Assembly (NCBI GenBank): GCA_021735445.1
Contig: JAIPHA010000003.1
Span: forward strand, 903-64,902
Length of the DNA: 64,000 bases
Reading direction: 5' to 3'
Source: Candidatus Omnitrophota bacterium
GTDB taxonomy: Bacteria > Omnitrophota > Gorgyraeia > Duberdicusellales > 4484-171
The notes beneath the pieces were generated by a model that ran no database searches, was not told where the DNA came from, and saw nothing but the letters and a program-made list of their open reading frames with translations. This document shows positions 99-61,267 of the stretch, piece by piece (the first letter of the stretch is position 1; every line of letters starts with the position of its first letter). Made by a program: the position numbers and the translations under genes.

Positions 99-171
99 GC
101 GGGTGTAGCTCAGCTGGTAGAGCGTCACGTTGCCAACGTGAAGGTCGGGGGTTCGAAACCCCTCGCCCGCT
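99..171 (+). tRNA. tRNA-Gly (anticodon GCC)
   Basis: Cloverleaf read by eye: acceptor GCGGGTG/CGCCCGC, D arm GCTC-AGCTGGTA-GAGC, anticodon stem TCACG/CGTGA with loop TTGCCAA, T arm GGGGG-TTCGAAA-CCCCT. No CCA is encoded. Confidence 0.95.
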
Positions 172-174
172 TTT

Positions 175-306
175 TCTGTTTTTTGATTATAAGAGGTTTT
201 GAGATAGCCGGAGGCAATTCGGGAGAGTTTTTCGGCAACAATTATTGTCCCTTCGGGACGCTTCGCCTGCGGCGAAGATTGTTTGCGAAACCCCTCGCCC
301 GCTTTT
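175..306 (+). repeat. tRNA-trailer module A: 111-nt insert (175-285) ending in a 7-bp hairpin (261-277), then a second copy of the tRNA-Gly 3' segment (286-306)
   Basis: The 21-nt exact direct repeat cgaaacccctcgcccgctttt occurs at 154-174 and 286-306. The insert is homologous to 55762-55863 downstream of tRNA-Arg (shared ttcggYaaYaRttat and gcttcgSctgcgScgaagatt blocks). Confidence 0.85.
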
Positions 307-8887: not shown

Positions 8888-10681
8888 ATGGAACAAAAAA
8901 GAAAAACCAGGAATTTTTGCATTATAGCCCATATAGACCATGGTAAATCTACCTTAGCGGATAGATTTTTAGAAATTGCCGGAACCGTTAAAGGAAAAAT
9001 TTCTCAGCAGATGCTAGACAGTATGGAATTAGAAAGAGAAAGAGGGATTACGATTAAGGCAAAAGCAGTGCGCTTGGTCTATTCTTCCGGCGGAGATAGT
9101 TATATTTTAAATTTAATCGATACTCCCGGCCATGTTGATTTCAGTTATGAAGTCGCAAAATCTTTAAAAGGCTGTGAGGGAGCAATTCTTTTAGTTGATG
9201 CCGCTCAGGGAGTTGAAGCGCAAACCGTAGCTAACTTTCATTTAGCTTTAGAAGGCAATTTAAAAATTATTCCTGTTCTTAACAAAATAGACTTACCCGG
9301 CGCGGATTTAGAAAAAGGGTACCGGCAGTTGTTTGATATTTTTGGTTTTAAAAAGGAAGAAGTCTCGGCGGTTTCTGCTAAAGACGGGTCTGGGGTAGGA
9401 GAGTTGCTGGATAGGTTAATCAAAGAAATTCCCCCGCCTTCCGGAGATCCGGAAAAACCAACCAGAGCAGTACTTTTTGATTCTGCTTATGATTTATACC
9501 GGGGCGTTGTACTTTTTTTAAGAATTTTTGACGGGAAAATTAAACAAGGCGACAGAATTTTATTGATGCACCAAAAGAAAGAATACCGGGTCGAGGAGAT
9601 AGGTATTTTTTCACCTCAACCTGTAAAAAAGGAGAGTCTTGCTTGCGGCCAGGTTGGTTATATTTGCTGCAACATAAAAAATCCTAACGAGGTTGATGTG
9701 GGAGATACCGTTACCTTAAGTGCAAATCCCGCTTCTTCTCCTTTCGAAAGTTATCAGAAAATGTCGCCGATGGTTTTTGCGGGGATATTCCCTTCTTCCT
9801 CGCAGGACTATATAAGTTTGCGTGAAGCTATCGAAAAGCTAAATCTTTCCGACTCCTCTTTTAGCTATGAGCCGGATAGTTTAGGCGGCCTGGGCCATGG
9901 GTTCCGCTGCGGCTTTTTAGGCCTTCTCCATATGGATATTGTCCAGGAAAGGCTGGAGAGAGAATATGATCTTGATCTTATAGTTACATCGCCTAATGTT
10001 AAATATAAAATAAGACAAAAAGGGTCTAGGAAAACCAAAGAGATTGAAAGCGCTCATCAATTTCCCGATTTGCAAGAAATTGACCACGTTTATGAACCAT
10101 TTGTCACCGCTACGATTATGGTGCCGGTTGATTTTATTGATTCGGTGTGTGATTTAGCTAAGTCAAGGCGAGGGAATTTTAAAAAAATGGATTATCTGGG
10201 CAAAGACCGCCTTAACATAATGTTTGACATACCTTTATCTGAAATAGTTATTGATTTTTATGATAAAATAAAGTCTGTGACTCGCGGATACGGTTCTTTT
10301 GATTATGAGTTTACAGGGTATAAGGAAACAGATATCGTTCAGCTGGATATTCTTTTTAATCAAAAAAAAGTAGATGCTTTTTCTCTTTTAGTTCATAGAA
10401 CCAAAGCAGAGAGTAAAGGGCGGGCTGTGGCAGAGAAGTTAAAAGAGCTAATCCCCCGCCAGATGTATGAGGTTAAAGTGCAAGCTGCTATAGGCTCAAA
10501 AATAATAGCTTCTGCTAAGGTCCGGGCTATGAAAAAGAATGTTACGGCAAAATGTTACGGTGGCGATGTGAGCAGAAAAAGAAAACTTTGGGAAAAACAA
10601 AAAAAAGGCAAAAAGAAGATGAAACAGCTGGGAAATGTTTCTGTACCCCGGGGGGCTTTTTTGGAAGTCCTGAAGATGTAA
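8888..10681 (+). CDS. lepA: Translation elongation factor 4 (LepA)
   Basis: 597 aa with NFCIIAHIDHGKSTLADR, DTPGHVDF and NKID GTPase motifs and the LepA-specific C-terminal domain. Confidence 0.97.
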   Translation: MEQKRKTRNFCIIAHIDHGKSTLADRFLEIAGTVKGKISQQMLDSMELERERGITIKAKAVRLVYSSGGDSYILNLIDTPGHVDFSYEVAKSLKGCEGAILLVDAAQGVEAQTVANFHLALEGNLKIIPVLNKIDLPGADLEKGYRQLFDIFGFKKEEVSAVSAKDGSGVGELLDRLIKEIPPPSGDPEKPTRAVLFDSAYDLYRGVVLFLRIFDGKIKQGDRILLMHQKKEYRVEEIGIFSPQPVKKESLACGQVGYICCNIKNPNEVDVGDTVTLSANPASSPFESYQKMSPMVFAGIFPSSSQDYISLREAIEKLNLSDSSFSYEPDSLGGLGHGFRCGFLGLLHMDIVQERLEREYDLDLIVTSPNVKYKIRQKGSRKTKEIESAHQFPDLQEIDHVYEPFVTATIMVPVDFIDSVCDLAKSRRGNFKKMDYLGKDRLNIMFDIPLSEIVIDFYDKIKSVTRGYGSFDYEFTGYKETDIVQLDILFNQKKVDAFSLLVHRTKAESKGRAVAEKLKELIPRQMYEVKVQAAIGSKIIASAKVRAMKKNVTAKCYGGDVSRKRKLWEKQKKGKKKMKQLGNVSVPRGAFLEVLKM

Positions 10682-10728: not shown

Positions 10729-11316
10729 ATGAAGAAAAAAAGTTCAACAAGAGAATGGATTGAATCAATAGTAGTTGCCGCGCTTTTAGTCGTAGTTTTA
10801 AAAACATTTTTTTTCCAAATGTATAAGATTCCTACTACTTCAATGGTTCCTACTCTTAAGCCTAAAGATAAGATATTTGTAAGCAAGTTAAGCTATGGGC
10901 CGAAGATGCCTTTTAATTTAGGCCGGCTGCCTGGATTCGCTGATCCGGAGAGAGGAGATGTGATAGTTTTTATACCGCCTCAAGAGGTAAAACAACCTTG
11001 GTATAGAAGAAAACCATATATAAAAAGAGTTGTTGGCTTACCCGGGGAGACTATCGAAATAAATAAAGGAAATATTCAGATTAACGGCGAGGAAGTTATT
11101 ATGCCGGAAGTTGCGGCTTTTTTTTATTATAACCAAGGCGAATACGCAAGAACAGGCAAAAAAGTAGTTGTTCCGGAGAAAAAATATTTTTGTTTGGGAG
11201 ATAATAGCATTAGTTCCAAGGATAGCCGTTACTGGGGTTTTGTCGATAAAGAGCAAATTATCGGAGAAGCAATTTTTATCTGGTGGCCGCCAAAAAGGAT
11301 CGGGATGATAGAATGA
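10729..11316 (+). CDS. lepB: Signal peptidase I
   Basis: N-terminal TM helix, catalytic Ser in the IPTTSMVPTL region, and GDNSISSKDSRYWGFV box E. Confidence 0.9.
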   Translation: MKKKSSTREWIESIVVAALLVVVLKTFFFQMYKIPTTSMVPTLKPKDKIFVSKLSYGPKMPFNLGRLPGFADPERGDVIVFIPPQEVKQPWYRRKPYIKRVVGLPGETIEINKGNIQINGEEVIMPEVAAFFYYNQGEYARTGKKVVVPEKKYFCLGDNSISSKDSRYWGFVDKEQIIGEAIFIWWPPKRIGMIE

Positions 11317-11633
11317 TTAAAAGTCCAACGTCTGAAGTCCAAAGTCTGAAGTCAATAAAGAATATTGGGTTATTGTTAGTGATCGGTTTGTTTTTAGCCG
11401 GTTGCGTCACAACTCAGGAATATGTCTATGAAGATGATGTTTTCAGAAAGAAGAGCGAGGTTTTAGACGAAAATCAAATTAAAGAAAAAAAGAAAGAGTG
11501 GATAGGCTCCTATTTAAAAGAAGATAGTTTGCCTAAACAGTGCCCAGTGTGCCGGAGAAGATATCAAATTTCTTTAGAAAAATGCCCTTATGATGGTACT
11601 GAGTTAGAGGAAATAGCAGAGGATAAACTCTGA
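11313..11633 (+). CDS. Hypothetical lipoprotein with a C-terminal CxxC...CxxxG zinc-ribbon-like motif
   Basis: Lipobox LFLAGC. The ATG at 11313 overlaps the lepB stop (ATGA), whereas the ORF-track start at 11283 lies inside lepB. The N-terminal 13 codons are encoded by a heptamer array. Confidence 0.45.
   Translation: MIKSPTSEVQSLKSIKNIGLLLVIGLFLAGCVTTQEYVYEDDVFRKKSEVLDENQIKEKKKEWIGSYLKEDSLPKQCPVCRRRYQISLEKCPYDGTELEEIAEDKL
11323..11353. repeat. Heptamer array gtccaac gtctgaa gtccaaa gtctgaa gtc
   Basis: The 7-nt register was read directly. It lies at the lepB/lipoprotein junction and is translated as SPTSEVQSLKS. Confidence 0.8.
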
Positions 11634-20809: not shown

Positions 20810-21442
20810 ATGATAGTAATTATTGACTATGGGATGGGTAATTTAGAAAGCGTAAAAAATGCTGTTTTATTTTTGGGGAAGGAAGCAGTTGTTACCGCTT
20901 CACCCGAAAGGCTACAATCTGCCAAAAAAATAATTTTTCCCGGGGTGGGTCATTTTGCCCAAGCCGTCAAGCAGTTAGAATCAAGAAGGTTGATTGATCC
21001 TCTAAAGGAAAAGATAAAAGAGGGAGTGCCTTTTTTGGGGATTTGTTTAGGGATGCATCTGTTGTTTGAAAAAAGCAGTGAAGCGCAAGGTGTTTCGGGC
21101 CTGGGGGTTATAAAAGGAAAAGTATCAAGATTTGACGATAACGGCTTGATTGTACCGCATATGGGTTGGAATCAAATTAAAAAAGTCCAAAGTCCAAAGT
21201 CCAAAGTCCAAAGTCAAGATGAAATGGTAGATTTGTTTGAAGGGATAGAAGATGGCAGTTATTTTTATTTTGCTCACTCTTATTTTTGCCAACCCCGCGA
21301 GAAAGTTGCCTTAGCGACTACCGATTACGGCCAAGAGTTTGTTTCTGCCCTGGGGAAGAAAAATATTTGGGGGATTCAGTTCCATCCGGAGAAAAGCCAA
21401 AAAAAAGGCTTAAAAGTGTTAGAAAATTTTTTAAAGGCTTAG
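20810..21442 (+). CDS. hisH: Imidazole glycerol phosphate synthase, glutamine amidotransferase subunit
   Basis: Class I GATase triad context (GICLGMHLL, PHMGWN, FHPEKS). It contains a ~10-aa insertion encoded by a heptamer array. Confidence 0.92.
   Translation: MIVIIDYGMGNLESVKNAVLFLGKEAVVTASPERLQSAKKIIFPGVGHFAQAVKQLESRRLIDPLKEKIKEGVPFLGICLGMHLLFEKSSEAQGVSGLGVIKGKVSRFDDNGLIVPHMGWNQIKKVQSPKSKVQSQDEMVDLFEGIEDGSYFYFAHSYFCQPREKVALATTDYGQEFVSALGKKNIWGIQFHPEKSQKKGLKVLENFLKA
21185..21215 (+). repeat. Perfect tandem (GTCCAAA)x4 plus gtc inside the hisH coding sequence
   Basis: gtccaaagtccaaagtccaaagtccaaagtc read directly; translated in frame as VQSPKSKVQS. Confidence 0.95.
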
Positions 21443-24385: not shown

Positions 24386-24844
24386 ATGAAACAACTCAAA
24401 GGAAAATTTGACGGTAGAGGTAAAAAAATAGCAATAGTGGTTTCTCGTTTTAATGAAGTAATCAGCAAGCGGCTGCTGGAAGGCTGTATGGATACTTTAA
24501 AAAAATGCGGCACAGATGATAAAAATATTTCTCTCTACTGGTCTCCGGGGTCTTTTGAAATTCCCCAAATTTTATCAAAATTACAGGTCAACAAATTTGA
24601 TGCAGTAATAACCTTAGGCGCGGTTATAAGGGGCGATACTCCTCATTTTGAATATATATCATCCGAGGTAACAAAAGGTATAGCTAAAATAGCCCAAGAC
24701 AAAAAAATTCCTATAGCCTTTGGAATAATTACAGCTGATACTATCGAACAGGCAACGGAAAGATCCGGGACCAAACAAGGGAATAAAGGTTCTGATGCAG
24801 CTTTTTCAGCTCTTGAAATGGCAAATTTATACAGCCAACTATAA
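24386..24844 (+). CDS. ribH: 6,7-dimethyl-8-ribityllumazine synthase
   Basis: IAIVVSRFNE, PGSFEIP and GAVIRGDTPHFEY motifs. The ATG at 24386 follows the GGAGGG RBS. Confidence 0.95.
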   Translation: MKQLKGKFDGRGKKIAIVVSRFNEVISKRLLEGCMDTLKKCGTDDKNISLYWSPGSFEIPQILSKLQVNKFDAVITLGAVIRGDTPHFEYISSEVTKGIAKIAQDKKIPIAFGIITADTIEQATERSGTKQGNKGSDAAFSALEMANLYSQL

Positions 24845-24847
24845 AAA

Positions 24848-24878
24848 GTCCTAGGTCCAACGTCCAATGTCCAAAGTC
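24848..24878. repeat. Heptamer array gtcctag gtccaac gtccaat gtccaaa gtc (left arm)
   Basis: The 7-nt register was read directly. The inverted partner array lies at 24915-24945 across an AT-only 36-nt spacer. Confidence 0.85.
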
Positions 24879-24914
24879 AAAAAATAATCTTTATTATTTA
24901 TTTTTAAAAATAAT

Positions 24915-36263: not shown

Positions 36264-36878
36264 ATGGAAATATTAATTACAGCCGGGCCTACCTGGGCGC
36301 AAATCGATAAGGTGAGAATTTTAACCAACCGATTTACGGGTAAAACCGGTCTTTACCTAGCCAATAAGCTAACGGCAGCAGGCCATAAGGTTACTTTGAT
36401 CGTAAACCCTTATTCACTCGGTAAGGTTGCAGGTATAAAAAGTTATTATTTTCATTATTTTGATCAGTTTAAAGATAAAATAACGGATTTGTTAAAAAAT
36501 AATAAATTTGATGCGGTAGTGCATATGGCAGCAGTAAGCGATTATTTACCTAAGTTTAAAGGCGAAGGAAAAATTCCTTCCGGGAAAAAAGATTTTGATA
36601 TTTCTTTGGTTCCGGCTCCAAAAATAATTAAAATTATTCGTAAACTGGCTAAAGAATCTATATTAATTCAATTTAAACTGGAAGTAGAAGAAAAAGGTAT
36701 TATTGATAAGGCCTACGAAAGCCTTAAAAAAAACGATTCAGATTATGTAGTAGCCAATGCTTTAGAATCTTTGGAAGAAGGCTATCAAGCACAATTGATC
36801 GATAAGCAAAAAAATATAATTAGAATCAACTCAAAAGACGATTTAGCCAAAGAAATTAATAACCTCTTAGCTCTATAA
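36264..36878 (+). CDS. coaB: Phosphopantothenate--cysteine ligase (stand-alone CoaB)
   Basis: ITAGPTWAQIDKVRILTNRFTGKTG and AAVSDY motifs of the CoaB half of Dfp. Confidence 0.85.
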   Translation: MEILITAGPTWAQIDKVRILTNRFTGKTGLYLANKLTAAGHKVTLIVNPYSLGKVAGIKSYYFHYFDQFKDKITDLLKNNKFDAVVHMAAVSDYLPKFKGEGKIPSGKKDFDISLVPAPKIIKIIRKLAKESILIQFKLEVEEKGIIDKAYESLKKNDSDYVVANALESLEEGYQAQLIDKQKNIIRINSKDDLAKEINNLLAL

Positions 36879-36880
36879 CC

Positions 36881-36915
36881 TACCAACTGTCCACACCCGG
36901 TGTGGACAGTTGGTA
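36881..36915. repeat. REP-like perfect hairpin (16-bp stem, 3-nt loop) upstream of the RAYT gene
   Basis: taccaactgtccacac ccg gtgtggacagttggta, with the arms exactly complementary. Confidence 0.9.
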
Positions 36916-36937: not shown

Positions 36938-37597
36938 ATGGCGCAAAGAAAAGTACCTTTAGAGATCGGGCGAGTTTATCATCTGTTTTCAAAAAGCATC
37001 GCTGGGTTTACGATATTTCGGAATAATTCGGAATATCAAAGGATGAGAGATTTACTCATTTATTATAATTTTATAAATTTACCTTGGAAATTTTCTCGTT
37101 TTTGCGAGAGGAAAGACAAAGAAATTGCCTATGACAGATATTTTACCAAAACGGAGAAGTTGGTAGATATAATTGGTTACTGTATAATGCCTACCCATAT
37201 CCATTTAATCCTAAGGAATTTAGATTATAAGGCAATATCAACCTTTATGAGAAAAATCCTTAATAGTTACGCTAAATATTTTAATATTAAAACTAAAAGA
37301 AGAGGGCCTTTATGGCAATCTCGTTTTAAGAACGTTCTTGTTGAAACCGATCAACAACTTATTCATTTAACCAGGTATCTGCATTTAAATCCCGTAACAG
37401 CCCGTTTGGTGGATCAACCAGAAAATTGGGGTTTTTCATCTTACAAAGAATTTTTAGATGATATAGAGAAAAATAAAAGAATTTGCAGTTATTCAGGCAT
37501 TCTAAATATAAACCCTAAAGAATATAAGGATTTCGTAAATTCCCAGATAAATTATCAGAAAGAGCTGGCTGAATTGAAAAAAATGTGGATAGAATAA
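36938..37597 (+). mobile_element. REP-associated tyrosine transposase (RAYT; IS200/IS605 Y1 HUH family)
   Basis: HUH motif CIMPTHIHLIL and the catalytic-Tyr region LTRYLHLNPVTARLV...WGFSSY. It is flanked by related hairpins. ATG at 36938 is preferred, because the GTG at 36902 lies inside the hairpin. Confidence 0.85.
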
Positions 37598-37600
37598 GAC

Positions 37601-37634
37601 CTTACTGTCTGCACCCGGTGTGGACAGTGGTAGG
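37601..37634. repeat. REP-like imperfect hairpin downstream of the RAYT gene
   Basis: cttactgtctgcac ccg gtgtggacagtggtagg. The right arm is near-identical to the right arm of the 36881-36915 hairpin. Confidence 0.8.
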
Positions 37635-51341: not shown

Positions 51342-51426
51342 TGCCCTCGAGAGGATTCGAACCTCCATTTCCTTTTAGGAAACTAGCTCCTGAAGCTAGC
51401 GTGTCTGCCAGTTCCACCACGAGGGC
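51342..51426 (-). tRNA. tRNA-Leu (anticodon CAG)
   Basis: The reverse complement gives acceptor GCCCTCG/CGAGGGC, anticodon stem CTAGC/GCTAG with loop TTCAGGA, a long variable arm TTTCCTAAAAGGAAA and T arm GGAGG-TTCGAAT-CCTCT. It lies 3 nt from tRNA-Ser. Confidence 0.93.
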
Positions 51427-51435
51427 GCAAATAAA

Positions 51436-51470
51436 GTCCATAGTCAACGGTCTATTGTCCATAGTCAAAG
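51436..51470. repeat. Heptamer array gtccata gtcaacg gtctatt gtccata gtcaaag
   Basis: The 7-nt GTCNNNN register was read directly; it lies immediately upstream (in gene sense) of tRNA-Leu. Confidence 0.8.
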
Positions 51471-55392: not shown

Positions 55393-55627
55393 ACAGAGAA
55401 CACAAAATGCAGGGGGCAGCCGTTTTACAGAAGACACAGATAAGGTGTTGGCGTAGATGGTACAGATTGCAAGAGATAATTTAGATAGCCTTAATAAACT
55501 TACAGAGAAAATAATTGGGTTAGCAATAGAGGTAGATAAAAAAATAGGGCTAATATTAAATTTTGCAAATACTCGTTTAGAAATAAAACGAGTGATAAAT
55601 TAATTTTTCTTTCTCTGTGTTCTCTGT
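55393..55627 (+). repeat. Inverted-repeat-bounded cassette holding the GxxExxY gene remnant
   Basis: acagagaacaca at 55393-55404 is the exact reverse complement of tgtgttctctgt at 55616-55627. The right repeat recurs at window nt 47-58. Confidence 0.7.
55498..55603 (+). pseudogene. Remnant of a GxxExxY-family (PD-(D/E)XK-like) gene: N-terminal and C-terminal ends joined, with a frameshift
   Basis: It reads LTEKIIGLAIEVDKKIGLILNF, then shifts +1 in the T-run at 55561-64 to ANTRLEIKRVIN-stop. The ~90 central codons that carry the GxxExxY motif in intact family members are missing. Confidence 0.6.
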
Positions 55628-55668
55628 AAAGCATGTTATTGTTCGGATTCAGTGTAATCTGTGAGTTA
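55570..55668 (+). repeat. Conserved tRNA-upstream flank, copy B
   Basis: 55570-55641 is identical to window nt 1-72, and the remainder is partly conserved up to the tRNA-Arg start. Confidence 0.9.
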
Positions 55669-55742
55669 GCGCCCGTAGCTCAATCGGATAGAGCATCGGC
55701 CTTCTAAGCCGAGGGTTGCAGGTTCGATTCCTGCCGGGCGCG
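55669..55742 (+). tRNA. tRNA-Arg (anticodon TCT)
   Basis: Acceptor GCGCCCG/CGGGCGC, D arm GCTC-AATCGGATA-GAGC, anticodon stem TCGGC/GCCGA with loop CTTCTAA, and T arm GCAGG-TTCGATT-CCTGC. Confidence 0.95.
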
Positions 55743-55761
55743 TGTTCATTTTAGTTTGATA

Positions 55762-55902
55762 AGCGTTTTGCCAAGTGAGGCTTGATTTTGTTCGGTAATA
55801 GTTATCGGAACAAATAAAATCAGTTAAGGTAAGCAGGAAGCTTCGGCTGCGCCGAAGATTTGTTTCGATTCCTGCCGGGCGCGTGTTCATTTTAGTTTGA
55901 TA
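55762..55902 (+). repeat. tRNA-trailer module B: 102-nt insert (55762-55863) with hairpin 55841-55857, then a second copy of the tRNA-Arg 3' part plus its 3' flank (55864-55902)
   Basis: The 39-nt exact direct repeat ttcgattcctgccgggcgcgtgttcattttagtttgata occurs at 55723-55761 and 55864-55902. A copy of the T-stem 5' strand (gcagg) also lies at 55833-55837, 26 nt before the repeated T-loop. Confidence 0.88.
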
Positions 55903-58549: not shown

Positions 58550-58625
58550 GGTGGGTGTAGCTCAGGGGCAGAGCTCTTGATTGTGGTTCAAGTGGCCGGG
58601 GGTTCAAATCCCCTCACCCACCCCA
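58550..58625 (+). tRNA. tRNA-His (anticodon GTG) with encoded G-1 and CCA
   Basis: GGTGGGT/ACCCACC acceptor including the G-1:C73 pair, anticodon stem CTTGA/TCAAG with loop TTGTGGT, T arm with TTCAAAT loop, and a terminal CCA. Confidence 0.93.
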
Positions 58626-60101
58626 GTTTGGATACAAGGAGCGTTCAGCCAATAGGTTGAACGCTTTTTTGTAATGTGGGTTTAGTTTTTTTCCATCGAG
58701 GGTGCAGTTCGAAAGTACGATATTTAACATTTTAGCTCTTTCGAACTTATTTTGGCGTAAATAGAGGGGGAGGATCTTATTGGCAAATTCAAGAATCTTT
58801 AATCCTTCTTCTGTATAATCAAAATCTTTATTTTGATAATTTATAAGTTTTTCATTGATATTCTTTAATTCTTCCTGCCAATCCGAGCTTAAACTATCAT
58901 AAGTTTCTTCGGGTATTTTTCCGTCTATCTTATCAACATAAATTTTCTCAAGGCGTTTTTTAAGTAAATTCTTTCTTTTTTCAAGATTTTCTGATTGAGC
59001 TTTCCGGTATTCACATTGATCTTTATTTTCATTTTTAAAAACTTTCCGGCAATGATTTAATAATTCTTCATCTATACTTATTTTTTTTATTGCCTGAAAC
59101 AACATATCTGCGATCTTTTCTTCTCTTACATAAGTTAACTTACAGCCTCTATAACCTGTACAGCGATAATAAATAAATTTTTCTTTATGTATTTCTGCAG
59201 TAATAGAGGAACCACATTTAGCGCACTTTAGAAGGCCGGCATAGGCAAACCTCCTTTTTCGTAGTCTATGGGGCTTATTGAAGCGCTGAAATGATTTTTG
59301 GACCATATTAAAAAGCTTCTTAGATATCAGAGGAATATGCTTTCCTTGGCAAAGTTTTCCACTCCAATAGAAAGAACCAGTATAAAAAATATTTTTTAGC
59401 ATTTTATCAATAAAAGAAGTATGGATTTTTTTACCGGTCCTTGAACGAAGGCCTTCTTCATTAGCTATATCTCTCATCCTTTTAAGCGAATATTGTCCTG
59501 TAGAATATAATTCAAATAATCTCTTTATAAGGGGAGCTCGAGTTTGATCAATTTCAATTGTTTTTAAAACCCGATCATTTTCTTTTTTAGTTACATTTTT
59601 ATAACCTAGTGGAGCAAGGCCGGGGAATATTCCTTCCTGGGCTTTTTGATTCATCCCTTTCTTGCTTTCTTCAGAAAGGTTATCAATATAATGTTTAGCT
59701 ATTAAAGCTTTAAAGCCAAACATAAGTTTATCGCTTGATCTGGAATGTTTATCTAAAACAAAATTCTCTTTTACTAAGATGATTTTTATATCGGATTCAT
59801 TAATTAATGAATCTAATGTAGCTATATCTTTGAAATTGCGAGATAGCCGATCAGTTTTTTCACAAAGAACAATTTTAATTTGACGATTTTTCTTTAAGAA
59901 CTTGACCATATCAACAAAATTTTTCCGTCCGGATTGTTTTGCTGATTCTATATCAACAAATTCTTTAACTACAGAATATTTATTTTTTAATGCATGATCA
60001 TAAAGATATTTTTTCTGGGCAGGAATAGAATAACCTTCTTGTTCTTGCTCTTTGCTTGAAACTCGGGCATATAGGATTGCTTTTTCCATCTTAATTTGCA
60101 T
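58614..60101 (-). CDS. Large serine recombinase (integrase)
   Basis: N-terminal resolvase domain with catalytic Ser (AILYARVSSKEQ), a recombinase domain, a zinc ribbon (CAKCGSS...YYRCTGYRGC) and a coiled coil. The last 12 nt lie inside tRNA-His. Confidence 0.9.
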   Translation of the reverse strand: MQIKMEKAILYARVSSKEQEQEGYSIPAQKKYLYDHALKNKYSVVKEFVDIESAKQSGRKNFVDMVKFLKKNRQIKIVLCEKTDRLSRNFKDIATLDSLINESDIKIILVKENFVLDKHSRSSDKLMFGFKALIAKHYIDNLSEESKKGMNQKAQEGIFPGLAPLGYKNVTKKENDRVLKTIEIDQTRAPLIKRLFELYSTGQYSLKRMRDIANEEGLRSRTGKKIHTSFIDKMLKNIFYTGSFYWSGKLCQGKHIPLISKKLFNMVQKSFQRFNKPHRLRKRRFAYAGLLKCAKCGSSITAEIHKEKFIYYRCTGYRGCKLTYVREEKIADMLFQAIKKISIDEELLNHCRKVFKNENKDQCEYRKAQSENLEKRKNLLKKRLEKIYVDKIDGKIPEETYDSLSSDWQEELKNINEKLINYQNKDFDYTEEGLKILEFANKILPLYLRQNKFERAKMLNIVLSNCTLDGKKLNPHYKKAFNLLAERSLYPNWGG

Positions 60102-60140
60102 TATATTAATTTAATTATTTATATCAAGTTTAATTTATTT

Positions 60141-60437
60141 TTAAAAGCAAGGCCAAATATCATTTTTAATTTCTTCACACCTTAAACATTTTTTGCTATT
60201 GCAACCTTTTTTGTCTAAATATGCTAGTCTAATTTCTCCTTTTTGACTTAATTTATACCTACCAAAGCAATCTTTTTTAACTAGATTTTGTTTTTCTAAA
60301 AAAAGTAAATAAGATATTGCTCCTGATTTACTATGGTTAAAGTCTTTTATAATGTCTTTATAGTCTATAACTTCTTTTTCGTTTATAAAAGCTAAAACCA
60401 AATGTTTAATTTTTTTATTTTGTTTTTGCATTTTCAT
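60141..60437 (-). CDS. Small winged-helix DNA-binding protein with a C-terminal Cys cluster
   Basis: MarR/ArsR-like recognition region (GAISYLLFLEKQNLVKKDCFGRYKLSQKGE) and CNSKKCLRCEE...WPC. Confidence 0.5.
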   Translation of the reverse strand: MKMQKQNKKIKHLVLAFINEKEVIDYKDIIKDFNHSKSGAISYLLFLEKQNLVKKDCFGRYKLSQKGEIRLAYLDKKGCNSKKCLRCEEIKNDIWPCF

Positions 60438-60484
60438 ACCTCCTTTTAAGCTAGTTTAATTTTCTATATTAAATCGATTTATTT

Positions 60485-61267
60485 TTAATTAAGATTTATA
60501 TTTTTGTAATCATTTTTATTTAAGCGAAAGTCTTTTAATTCTTTTTCTAATTCAAATTCAATTATCCAACTATCGTTCCCACATTTTTCACATTTGAGTT
60601 TACTTTTTAAAGGTTTATTGCCATACAAGCTTCCAAATGGTTGTATCAAACGACTTTTCTTAAGAACTCTGTTATATACTTCTTCTTTTCCGTTTACTTT
60701 AGGTGGTTTAAAAAAATACTTAAGAATATACTTAAGGCCTTTTTTAGGGGTATGAGCTTTTCTTATATCTACTATGGGGCTGTCTCCAGTTAATTCTAAC
60801 CAATCCCTTGATATTTTTTGTTGGGGAAGATATCCTTCCTTTTTTGAGCTAGCTTCAATTAGAGCATGAATATGAATATTCCAACCTCGTCCTTTATTCG
60901 TTATTTCAATTACATACAGTCCGCCTTTGATTCTTCTTTTATAATATTTTTTTCTTAAGAACTTGTTAAAACATTTTCTAATAAACTTTATATCTTTTTT
61001 ATCTAAATAAGATTTATTTTTAATAGTTAAAGTTAACAATTTCGGATTAACCATAGGTTTAACTAATTCCAACCAACCTTTTAAAAGTTTAAAATAAGTT
61101 CTTCTGCGACATTCCGGACAAGTTCGATCGCTGCATTTAAGTTTTACCATTACCGGTTCTCCACATTGTCCACAATAGAGAGTTATAGTCCGATGTGAAC
61201 TTATTCCAGTATTATCAAGTGAAGAACTATTATCATTATTAATTAATTTAAATTCATCTGTAATCAT
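60485..61267 (-). CDS. HUH rolling-circle replication initiator-like endonuclease with zinc ribbons
   Basis: The three RCR motifs occur in order: KLLTLTIKN (motif 1), WNIHIHALIE (HUH) and LKYILKYFFKP (YxxxY). There is an N-terminal CGQCG...CPEC and a C-terminal CEKCG. Confidence 0.65.
   Translation of the reverse strand: MITDEFKLINNDNSSSLDNTGISSHRTITLYCGQCGEPVMVKLKCSDRTCPECRRRTYFKLLKGWLELVKPMVNPKLLTLTIKNKSYLDKKDIKFIRKCFNKFLRKKYYKRRIKGGLYVIEITNKGRGWNIHIHALIEASSKKEGYLPQQKISRDWLELTGDSPIVDIRKAHTPKKGLKYILKYFFKPPKVNGKEEVYNRVLKKSRLIQPFGSLYGNKPLKSKLKCEKCGNDSWIIEFELEKELKDFRLNKNDYKNINLN

Follow-up and report, generated by a model that had tools for sequence, protein, structure and literature searches.

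Why should two different tRNA genes each be followed by a second copy of their own 3' part, and what is the short segment held between the copies? Both genes lie in one 64,000-nt stretch of an Omnitrophota contig, referred to here as the window. The original prediction placed a module of this kind behind tRNA-Gly and another of the same architecture behind tRNA-Arg, and both are borne out. Reading of the sequence recovers the Gly direct repeat as 21 exact nt (cgaaacccctcgcccgctttt; 154-174 and 286-306) around an insert of 111 nt (175-285), and a repeat finder returns the Arg direct repeat as 39 nt with 100% identity (55723-55761 and 55864-55902) around an insert of 102 nt. According to ARAGORN and Rfam, tRNA-Gly(GCC) and tRNA-Arg(TCT) are both intact; the direct repeats that flank the inserts consist of their own 3' parts (Table 1).

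The two inserts had also been described as homologous, which holds: GCTTCGSCTGCGSCGAAGATT is common to both and occurs exactly twice in the 64 kb (260-280 and 55840-55860; expected from shuffles, 0.00), and pairwise alignment yields a second homologous block, ttcggNaacaa. The repeats begin within the T-loop as proposed, the left edge of the tRNA copy being C56 (position 154 in tRNA-Gly) across the whole family described below. The inserts were said to encode nothing, and the units indeed contain no ORF. One structural proposal did not survive. The pentamers gcagg (55833-55837) and tcggg (253-257) are present, the latter within a small hairpin (247-259), but they are not conserved across the family and pairing of the tail is unspecific. 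These pentamers had been taken for T-stem 5' strands and the second copy for a T-arm split by a hairpin; the partner strands that a tRNA-like or split T-arm would give the second copy were not found.

A single recent segmental duplication, named in advance as an outcome that would count against the prediction, does not describe the two loci either, as only the upstream 94 nt form a recent repeat and the tRNAs and units differ. This repeat (1-94 and 55570-55663, 93% identical, with the first 72 nt identical), which was not part of the original prediction, lies ahead of both unit-bearing tRNAs and consists of the 3'-terminal part of a GxxExxY-like ORF, now degenerate (TIGR04256, E = 0.006; ORF at 55457-55603), and the tRNA leader. 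It is not present in the close relatives L067/L068 (L numbers denote comparison loci), which have units without it; thus, we treat it as a separate matter. A 12-nt inverted repeat (55393-55404 and 55616-55627) brackets the GxxExxY-like repeat region, between tRNA-Pro and tRNA-Arg.

Table 1. Coordinates in the window of the two tRNA genes and of the parts of unit A (behind tRNA-Gly) and unit B (behind tRNA-Arg)
Feature	Positions	Strand	Description and basis
tRNA-Gly(GCC)	99..171	+	3' part from C56 (154) on would belong to the cassette in the insertion model; ARAGORN, Rfam RF00005 (68.7 bits)
First Gly direct-repeat copy	154..174	+	T-loop C56 to discriminator, plus ttt; sequence reading, 18-mer found twice
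T-rich spacer, unit A	172..229	+	~58 nt; conserved among tRNA-Gly units of five genomes
antiT, unit A	230..234	+	TTTCG, complement of CGAAA (T-loop nt 56-60) at 286-290; covariation over 16 instances, folding
P1 5' strand, unit A	237..242	+	AACAAT, pairs with ATTGTT at 278-283; alignment, covariation, folding
P2 hairpin, unit A	247..259	+	gtccc-ttc-gggac; alignment, folding
P3 hairpin, unit A	261..277	+	CTTCGCC-tgc-GGCGAAG, abuts P1 3' strand; covariation, folding
P1 3' strand, unit A	278..285	+	ATTGTT, then t and variable last base N (g); alignment, covariation
Second tRNA-Gly 3'-end copy	286..306	+	286-290 pair with antiT, 291-303 unpaired tail; sequence reading, covariation, tail-pairing test
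tRNA-Arg(TCT)	55669..55742	+	ARAGORN, Rfam
First 39-nt repeat copy	55723..55761	+	T54 to G73, plus 19 nt of trailer; repeat finder, family D10
Spacer, unit B	55743..55803	+	Sequence reading
antiT, unit B	55804..55807	+	ATCG, complement of CGAT (T-loop nt 56-59) at 55866-55869; covariation, folding
P1 5' strand, unit B	55809..55815	+	AACAAAT, pairs with ATTTGTT at 55858-55864; alignment, covariation, folding
P3 hairpin, unit B	55841..55857	+	CTTCGGC-tgc-GCCGAAG, C-G to G-C swap relative to unit A; covariation
P1 3' strand, unit B	55858..55865	+	ATTTGTT and last base N (t); alignment, covariation
Second 39-nt repeat copy	55864..55902	+	3' end of tRNA-Arg, displaced, with 19 trailer nt; repeat finder

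Units are uniform in length, with 129 to 143 bp per repeat period and 111 to 125 nt between two copies. A T-rich spacer of ~55 to 66 nt is followed by a conserved core and then by C56 of the tRNA copy. Within the core, the order is antiT (4 to 5 nt), G, the P1 5' strand, either P2 or an unstructured stretch of 20 to 25 nt, P3, the P1 3' strand, and the variable N. The P2 hairpin is limited to the Gly, Leu, and Met types. P1 takes four sequence forms (AACAAT/ATTGTT, AACAAAT/ATTTGTT, GGCAAT/ATTGCC, and ATGCAA(T)/(A)TTGCAT), as does P3 (CTTCGCC/GGCGAAG, CTTCGGC/GCCGAAG, CTTTGAC/GTCAAAG, and CTGCGA/TCGCAG), and the hairpin loops are 3 nt long and closed by C-G. Downstream of the tRNA-Gly tail, the next 64 nt (307-369) contain a 10-bp AT-rich hairpin (ggttaattgg...ccaattaacc) that is kept between host clades; the equivalent stretch is missing at the empty sites L050/L052.

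Pairing of the module with the T-loop copy

The 4 to 5 nt of antiT, which directly precede the module core, are complementary to T-loop nt 56 to 60 of the unit's own tRNA. The two strands (antiT/T-loop) read TTTCG/CGAAA in the Gly units, ATTCG/CGAAT in Val, AATCG/CGATT in Lys, ATCG/CGAT in Arg(TCT), GTCG/CGAC in both Arg(ACG) and Leu, and CTTG/CAAG in Met. In an alignment of 16 instances, 96.7% of the cells are paired and two-sided changes are seen in 9/19 pairs, with top-strand G-U tolerated. The covariation score of this 16-row alignment is 0.396, compared to 0.094 in shuffles (0/500 reach 0.396) and ≤0.08 in slid controls. The pair between antiT and T-loop nt 59 occurs as UA, AU, GC, and CG, with zero unpaired cells among the 16 instances. 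The stem also emerges from energy folding by itself, whichever strand is used (z-scores, -3.0 to -4.6). Together, antiT, P1, and P3 form one long covarying stem, the edge of which coincides with the left edge of the direct repeat. The remainder of the tRNA copy (nt 61 to 73) has no specific partner within the unit; the duplex of a unit with its own tail reaches -10.9 kcal/mol versus -9.3 kcal/mol with foreign tails, and in this tail-pairing test the Met and Val units alone were suggestive of own-tail pairing.

Part of this structure could be mistaken for an intrinsic terminator. In both window units, P3 followed by ATT(T)GTTT fits a simple terminator pattern, so an ordinary terminator of the tRNA operon (P3 plus T tract), next to a tRNA end that was duplicated by chance or by slippage, deserves mention, but we consider it very improbable. 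The Gly and Arg units have the form of a terminator, but it is not shared by the Leu and Met types, in which P3 is followed by ATTGCATA with no T tract, and it does not suit units in the middle of operons, as the Leu units are. Moreover, the T tract is not free but forms one strand of P1, and both antiT and the tRNA copy would be left unexplained. A terminator-only reading was rejected, being contradicted by the Leu and Met types.

The stem could instead act as RNA, which was among the initial explanations and is the main alternative to the reading favored below. A structured RNA that benefits the host, located in the 3' trailer of the tRNA, would be co-transcribed with the tRNA and released by 3' processing, and its copies would have spread by duplication and homologous recombination, not by transposition; we judge this rather unlikely. 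Its possible roles include signalling in processing or folding and action as a sponge or decoy that presents a single-stranded copy of the tRNA 3' end; alternatively, the processed trailer RNA could offer its free 3'-end copy as a decoy or guide. The strong covariation and the tolerance of top-strand G-U are consistent with such an RNA, as is the invariable location of the module on the tRNA strand, directly in the trailer. The Leu units also agree with it, since they lie mid-operon and therefore must be read through. Against it, the energies given above indicate that tail-tRNA identity plays no part in the fold, and the requirement that the tail equal the tRNA goes unexplained. Loops of 3 nt are unusual in functional RNA, and the module is without an Rfam family: only tRNA matches at gathering score, with nothing credible for the units at E ≤ 10.

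Family members, empty sites, and arrays

The absence of further copies had been set as a refuting outcome, but copies were found behind other tRNA species. At least eight tRNA species are counted as carrying the module, those named being Gly(GCC), Arg(TCT), Arg(ACG), Val(TAC), Lys(CTT), Leu(TAG), and Met(CAT), and each instance is followed by a repeat of the segment between C56 and the 3' end of its own tRNA. The hosts are Omnitrophota MAGs and one other MAG; by exact protein matches and a genome scan, the window itself belongs with Candidatus Omnitrophota MAGs of one lake series. A hairpin-pattern genome scan located units of tRNA-Val(TAC) in L012, L013, and L019, of tRNA-Lys(CTT) in L014, of tRNA-Gly(GCC) in L010 and L015, and of tRNA-Arg(TCT) in L008/L022. 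In L009, from a MAG labelled Planctomycetia, tRNA-Met(CAT) is followed by an array of three units. A metagenome scan added tRNA-Arg(ACG) units (L032/L047), and comparison of orthologous loci added tRNA-Leu(TAG) units (L056/L010). A covariance model of the 16 instances (R1) recovers those instances alone in 293 kb, with exactly two in the window, and can be used for a survey of the family.

Other matches were discarded. Except for L009, the 18 matches in non-Omnitrophota genomes were chance hits in G+C-rich genes; 15/17 metagenome matches were likewise due to chance; and six viral-contig matches to the hairpin pattern represent one phage coding sequence. The gapped and Leu-type patterns had no matches in viral contigs, and the scans returned no excised form, plasmid copy, or phage copy of a unit. 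A literature search for a described equivalent of the module found none. Between tRNA types, core identity is ~80%; thus, jumps across tRNAs are not recent, and the Gly and Val units look largely vertically inherited.

Orthologous tRNA loci with and without the module were compared, as had been suggested, and both empty and filled sites were found for Gly and Leu. In L015, L050, and L059, the native flank lies directly 3' of tRNA-Leu(TAG), with no unit. In L056/L010, that flank adjoins the end of an array of two or more 131-nt units (repeat length, 24 nt); as these contigs begin inside the array, they do not show the tRNA-Leu gene. The tRNA-Gly unit is present in five genomes (the window, L010/L056, L015, and L059) and absent from L049, L050-52, L054, and L055, a distribution at odds with the host tree. 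Presence/absence polymorphism at orthologous sites is therein demonstrated for Gly and Leu. A clean empty site for tRNA-Arg(TCT) was not found among the relatives, which have one to three units or a different, "type 2" insert.

Tandem accretion is evident at the same tRNA-Arg(TCT) site, with one unit in the window, two in the genome G24, and three in L067/L068. In G24, the tRNA-proximal unit has an unrelated spacer and the distal unit is orthologous to that of the window. The outermost copies of arrays decay (mutated in L009 and truncated in L022), and in L012 the conserved block stops exactly at A73, beyond which the flank differs from that of L013/L019. A miniature non-autonomous integrative element, one of the explanations first put forward, is supported by the family copies, the empty orthologous sites, the clean insertion of one unit, and the arrays of one to three units. 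Empty sites, one-unit insertion, and decaying tandem arrays together imply that the modules are neither one segmental duplication nor large-island scars.

The latter possibility, deletion scars (attL plus attR) of larger integrase-bearing islands of one family, was also among the initial explanations and is hardly to be expected. The repeats formed by many tRNA-targeting integrases start in the T-loop, as the present ones do, and in L009 there is also a larger and older insertion, at whose boundary stands a tRNA-Met fragment that starts in the anticodon loop. The relatives examined nevertheless have no large island at these sites, and the units are uniform in length (111 to 125 nt), are found in tandem arrays, and are conserved far above neutral expectation instead of decaying. 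The relatives, the conservation, and the arrays already contradict the island-scar reading, which was set aside.

Several other insertions were seen at these tRNA genes. The older one in L009 (1727-2934), 3' of the three tRNA-Met units, carries a nucleotidyltransferase/HEPN-like gene pair without an integrase, and its bounding tRNA-Met fragment (2893-2934) is longer and starts in the anticodon loop. In L049, a 23S_rRNA_IVP (four-helix-bundle) gene with aaagggtaaagg-type flanking repeats (9477-10000) stands where other genomes have the tRNA-Gly unit. Another type of insert lies behind tRNA-Arg(ACG) and tRNA-Arg(TCT) (L014, 5591-5682; L071, 3893-3945; L072, 164-260). It comprises "ttg," a T-loop copy (TTCGAyTC), a CCCGAC...GGAACGAAGTGGAGyGTCGGG hairpin with or without two inner hairpins, and a copy of tRNA nt 62 to 73; that is, it is a second tRNA 3' end split at 61/62, which in L014 is followed by CCA. 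The working tRNA-Arg(TCT) of L072 (90-163) has the T-arm gtgtg ttcaaat cacac, as opposed to ttcgattc...ctgcc in the displaced copy (164-260). Because these T-arms are wholly different, identity to the working gene is not maintained and the downstream copy is a relic.

Sequence conservation sets the units apart from their surroundings. Four-fold degenerate sites of neighbouring genes are ~45 to 52% identical between the two host clades, and unit identity between genomes is 0.84 to 0.97 (Gly units, 84 to 93%; Val units, up to 96.8%). Thus, the units are not decaying. The Val units are, in addition, incongruent with their hosts and flanks: between L012 and L019 the units are 0.968 identical and the flanks 81%, and between L013 and L019 the values are 0.888 and 87.5%. 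Unit conservation and Val incongruence therefore point to strong constraint or to exchange between lineages. Conservation of the Gly tail is 100% in both clades and extends to the 64 nt beyond it, for which selection at the RNA level would account equally well.

The trailer RNA considered above gains from conservation that far exceeds four-fold sites, spacer and tail included, from the conserved tail in single-unit loci, and from a similar degree of conservation in other structured spacers of tRNA operons. It loses from the decay of distal tails, the lack of the unit at the same tRNA in close relatives, the variation in copy number from 1 to 3 among near relatives, and the incongruence of the Val unit tree with the host tree. 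Should the units act as RNA after all, they would represent a new conserved class of tRNA-trailer RNA.

A candidate insertion cassette and its relation to known systems

The reading that we favor, with confidence that stands about midway, is that the family consists of small, non-autonomous, non-coding, tRNA-T-loop-specific insertion cassettes that enter at position 55/56, are recognized as folded single-stranded DNA (ssDNA), and are targeted by base pairing. A unit would comprise a replacement tRNA 3' end (C56 to N73), the T-rich spacer, and the folded module; insertion would displace the original 3' end downstream, where it would appear as the second copy. The guide (antiT) would pair with T-loop nt 56 to 60 right after the junction, placing the junction inside a quasi-continuous ~20-bp stem of P3, P1, and antiT. 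ssDNA would make this fold and present it as the substrate of a structure-specific recombinase or transposase acting in trans, possibly an HUH Y1 enzyme or a tyrosine recombinase working on folded sites, and the T-loop would be selected by guide pairing. Since tRNA identity and guide pairing coincide at the junction, a site-specific reaction on folded ssDNA would account for both, with identity serving to rejoin or restore the tRNA and pairing serving to build the substrate and choose the target. Repeated excision and re-insertion may maintain the perfect displaced copy, and one or two changes of guide base would be predicted to retarget the cassette to another tRNA. We also infer that 3-nt loops and a size of ~130 bp suit ssDNA more than a duplex circle, which is hard to bend when so short.

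The tRNA 3' end may be either supplied by the unit or duplicated on insertion. If it is carried, rare swaps would be needed, because spacer and module are homologous across tRNA species yet each unit has its own tRNA end. We know of no enzyme that produces variable duplications of 18 to 39 bp. Some features of the boundaries would fit a different route, in which a read-through trailer RNA (spacer, module, and tail) uses its tail to pair at a nick within the T-loop of the same tRNA gene and is copied by target-primed reverse transcription. The left boundary is fixed at 55/56 and the right one varies from +0 to +19 nt past nt 73, the unit starts right after nt 73, where the 3' processing cut is expected, and unit length is uniform. 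A retro-copy of this sort is still improbable, as neither the window nor the loci read showed a reverse transcriptase and the antiT pairing would be left without a role. A retro-copied mature tRNA, considered from the CCA that follows three displaced copies, was rejected; native CCA-encoding genes are the simpler source.

Whether the favored cassette amounts to an undescribed class of base-pairing-programmed mobile element, in which ~110 to 125 nt of non-coding DNA (or its RNA) uses a 4- to 5-nt guide to pick the T-loop and leaves the tRNA intact, is more tentative; we regard it as possible but less likely than not. If the favored reading is right, the tRNA genes of an abundant uncultured phylum would host a minimal, protein-less cassette whose target is set by pairing over a few bases. 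Such a cassette would carry the guide-target principle known from single-strand transposons to a site that each cell must preserve, giving a natural case of insertion that is programmable and leaves the gene intact. Breaks of these genome assemblies at tRNA loci would be explained as well.

Candidate enzymes were sought in the window and at the comparison loci. An intact Y1 HUH transposase gene of the IS200-like/REP-associated kind (36938-37597, plus strand; PF01797, E = 5e-7; HIH and YLHLNP motifs) sits between DFP and Flavoprotein (coaBC-like) genes and is flanked by two CTGTCCACACCCGGTGTGGACAG hairpins (36887-36909 and 37605-37627). This hairpin differs from those of the units and has no other occurrence in the window or the loci, so that the Y1 transposase and the units are not linked through a common hairpin. 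A second intact Y1-type protein, a paralogue (315 aa, with a DnaA-C-like tail), is encoded at L022 3206-4153, directly after tRNA-His in G24, and its hairpins likewise differ from those of the units. Apart from RecA, the Y1 gene, and a serine recombinase at tRNA-His, the window holds no recombinases, the remainder being housekeeping genes, and no recombinase adjoins any unit among the loci read. This serine recombinase is large and is encoded on the minus strand (58614-60101), its gene running into the 3' end of tRNA-His (58551-58625), and it belongs to an element separate from the units. A Rep_1 replication gene (60485-61267) comes after it, and 58551-61267 looks like a small replicon that has integrated; the tRNA-His end is not repeated anywhere further along the window.

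The closest precedent for the proposed guide is IS608, in which target choice relies on guide-target pairing (PMC5934647). Like this model of the IS200/IS605 family, the units are small and structure defined, with a subterminal hairpin; in IS608 a short internal guide pairs with 4 to 5 nt at the cleavage or target site, as antiT may do at the T-loop, and a change of guide resets the target (PMC5934647). Y1 HUH transposase genes are, moreover, present in unit-bearing genomes. Unlike the units, IS608 has its guide 5' of the hairpin (PMC5934647) and is without flanking repeats; in the unit, the hairpins separate the putative guide from the junction, and its partner bases follow the junction. IS200/IS605 elements are marked by subterminal hairpins at both ends, no terminal inverted repeats, and no target duplication, whereas the units have a conserved fold at one end only and are flanked by 18- to 39-nt direct repeats of the tRNA end.

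Integron cassettes recombine at folded attC sites, and they resemble the units as small promoter-less elements in tandem, variable in sequence and conserved in structure. Both share an outer helix across the crossover that gives way, past a mismatch, to an inner helix and then to a terminal structure that varies, and in both the newest unit is nearest the entry site. The R''/R' boxes of attC (RYYYAAC/GTTRRRY, crossover G|TT) are, however, not found: AAC...GTT is confined to the AACAA(A)T types, and the Leu and Met types have ATGCAA/TTGCAT or GGCAAT/ATTGCC in its place. No integron integrase, attI, or cassette ORFs occur in the loci read, and the entry site of the unit is a tRNA T-loop, with the unit restoring the tRNA.

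tRNA-targeting integrative elements and their integrase-less derivatives, cis-mobilizable elements (CIMEs), also have direct repeats of the tRNA 3' part from the T-loop and restore the tRNA, and CIMEs share with the units tandem accretion and the lack of a recombinase of their own. They differ in that the unit is ~130 bp rather than kilobases long, has no inverted core-type binding sites around the crossover, sits, as one family, at eight or more different tRNAs, and has its junction within a covarying stem; no cognate tyrosine or serine integrase was detected in or beside the units in the loci read. The delocalized crRNAs with which CRISPR-associated transposons (CASTs) home to tRNA genes likewise pair a structured RNA-like scaffold with a short tRNA-identical segment (PMC11656645). 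In the comparison with CASTs, the tRNA copy comes directly after GGTT in the gene but not so in the module. The first 4 to 5 nt of the unit's "guide" are, in contrast to CAST, paired with antiT, and units stand behind their own targets, in arrays; neither cas nor Tn7-like, Cas12k/TnpB, or Cascade genes occur in the window or the loci read. Compared to MITEs, which as DDE transposon derivatives have terminal inverted repeats and a short target duplication of fixed length, the inverted repeats of the units are internal (antiT/P1), with the T-loop as one arm, and the direct repeats are variable at 18 to 39 nt. We therefore file the units as non-autonomous site-specific insertion elements at tRNA genes, with the covarying guide-T-loop stem as their distinguishing mark.

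Two further observations concern the window at large. ARAGORN calls a 91-nt tRNA-Phe(AAA) at 36540-36630, inside the DFP ORF, which is probably false because it is without Rfam support. Arrays of heptamer repeats (AAAGTCC/ATAGTC...), often forming long hairpins, are found at gene ends and between tRNAs, both in the window (11311-11355, 21173-21231, 24822-24880, and 51424-51468) and at the comparison loci (L014, 5690-5725; L015, 2000-2090; L071, 3950-3985).
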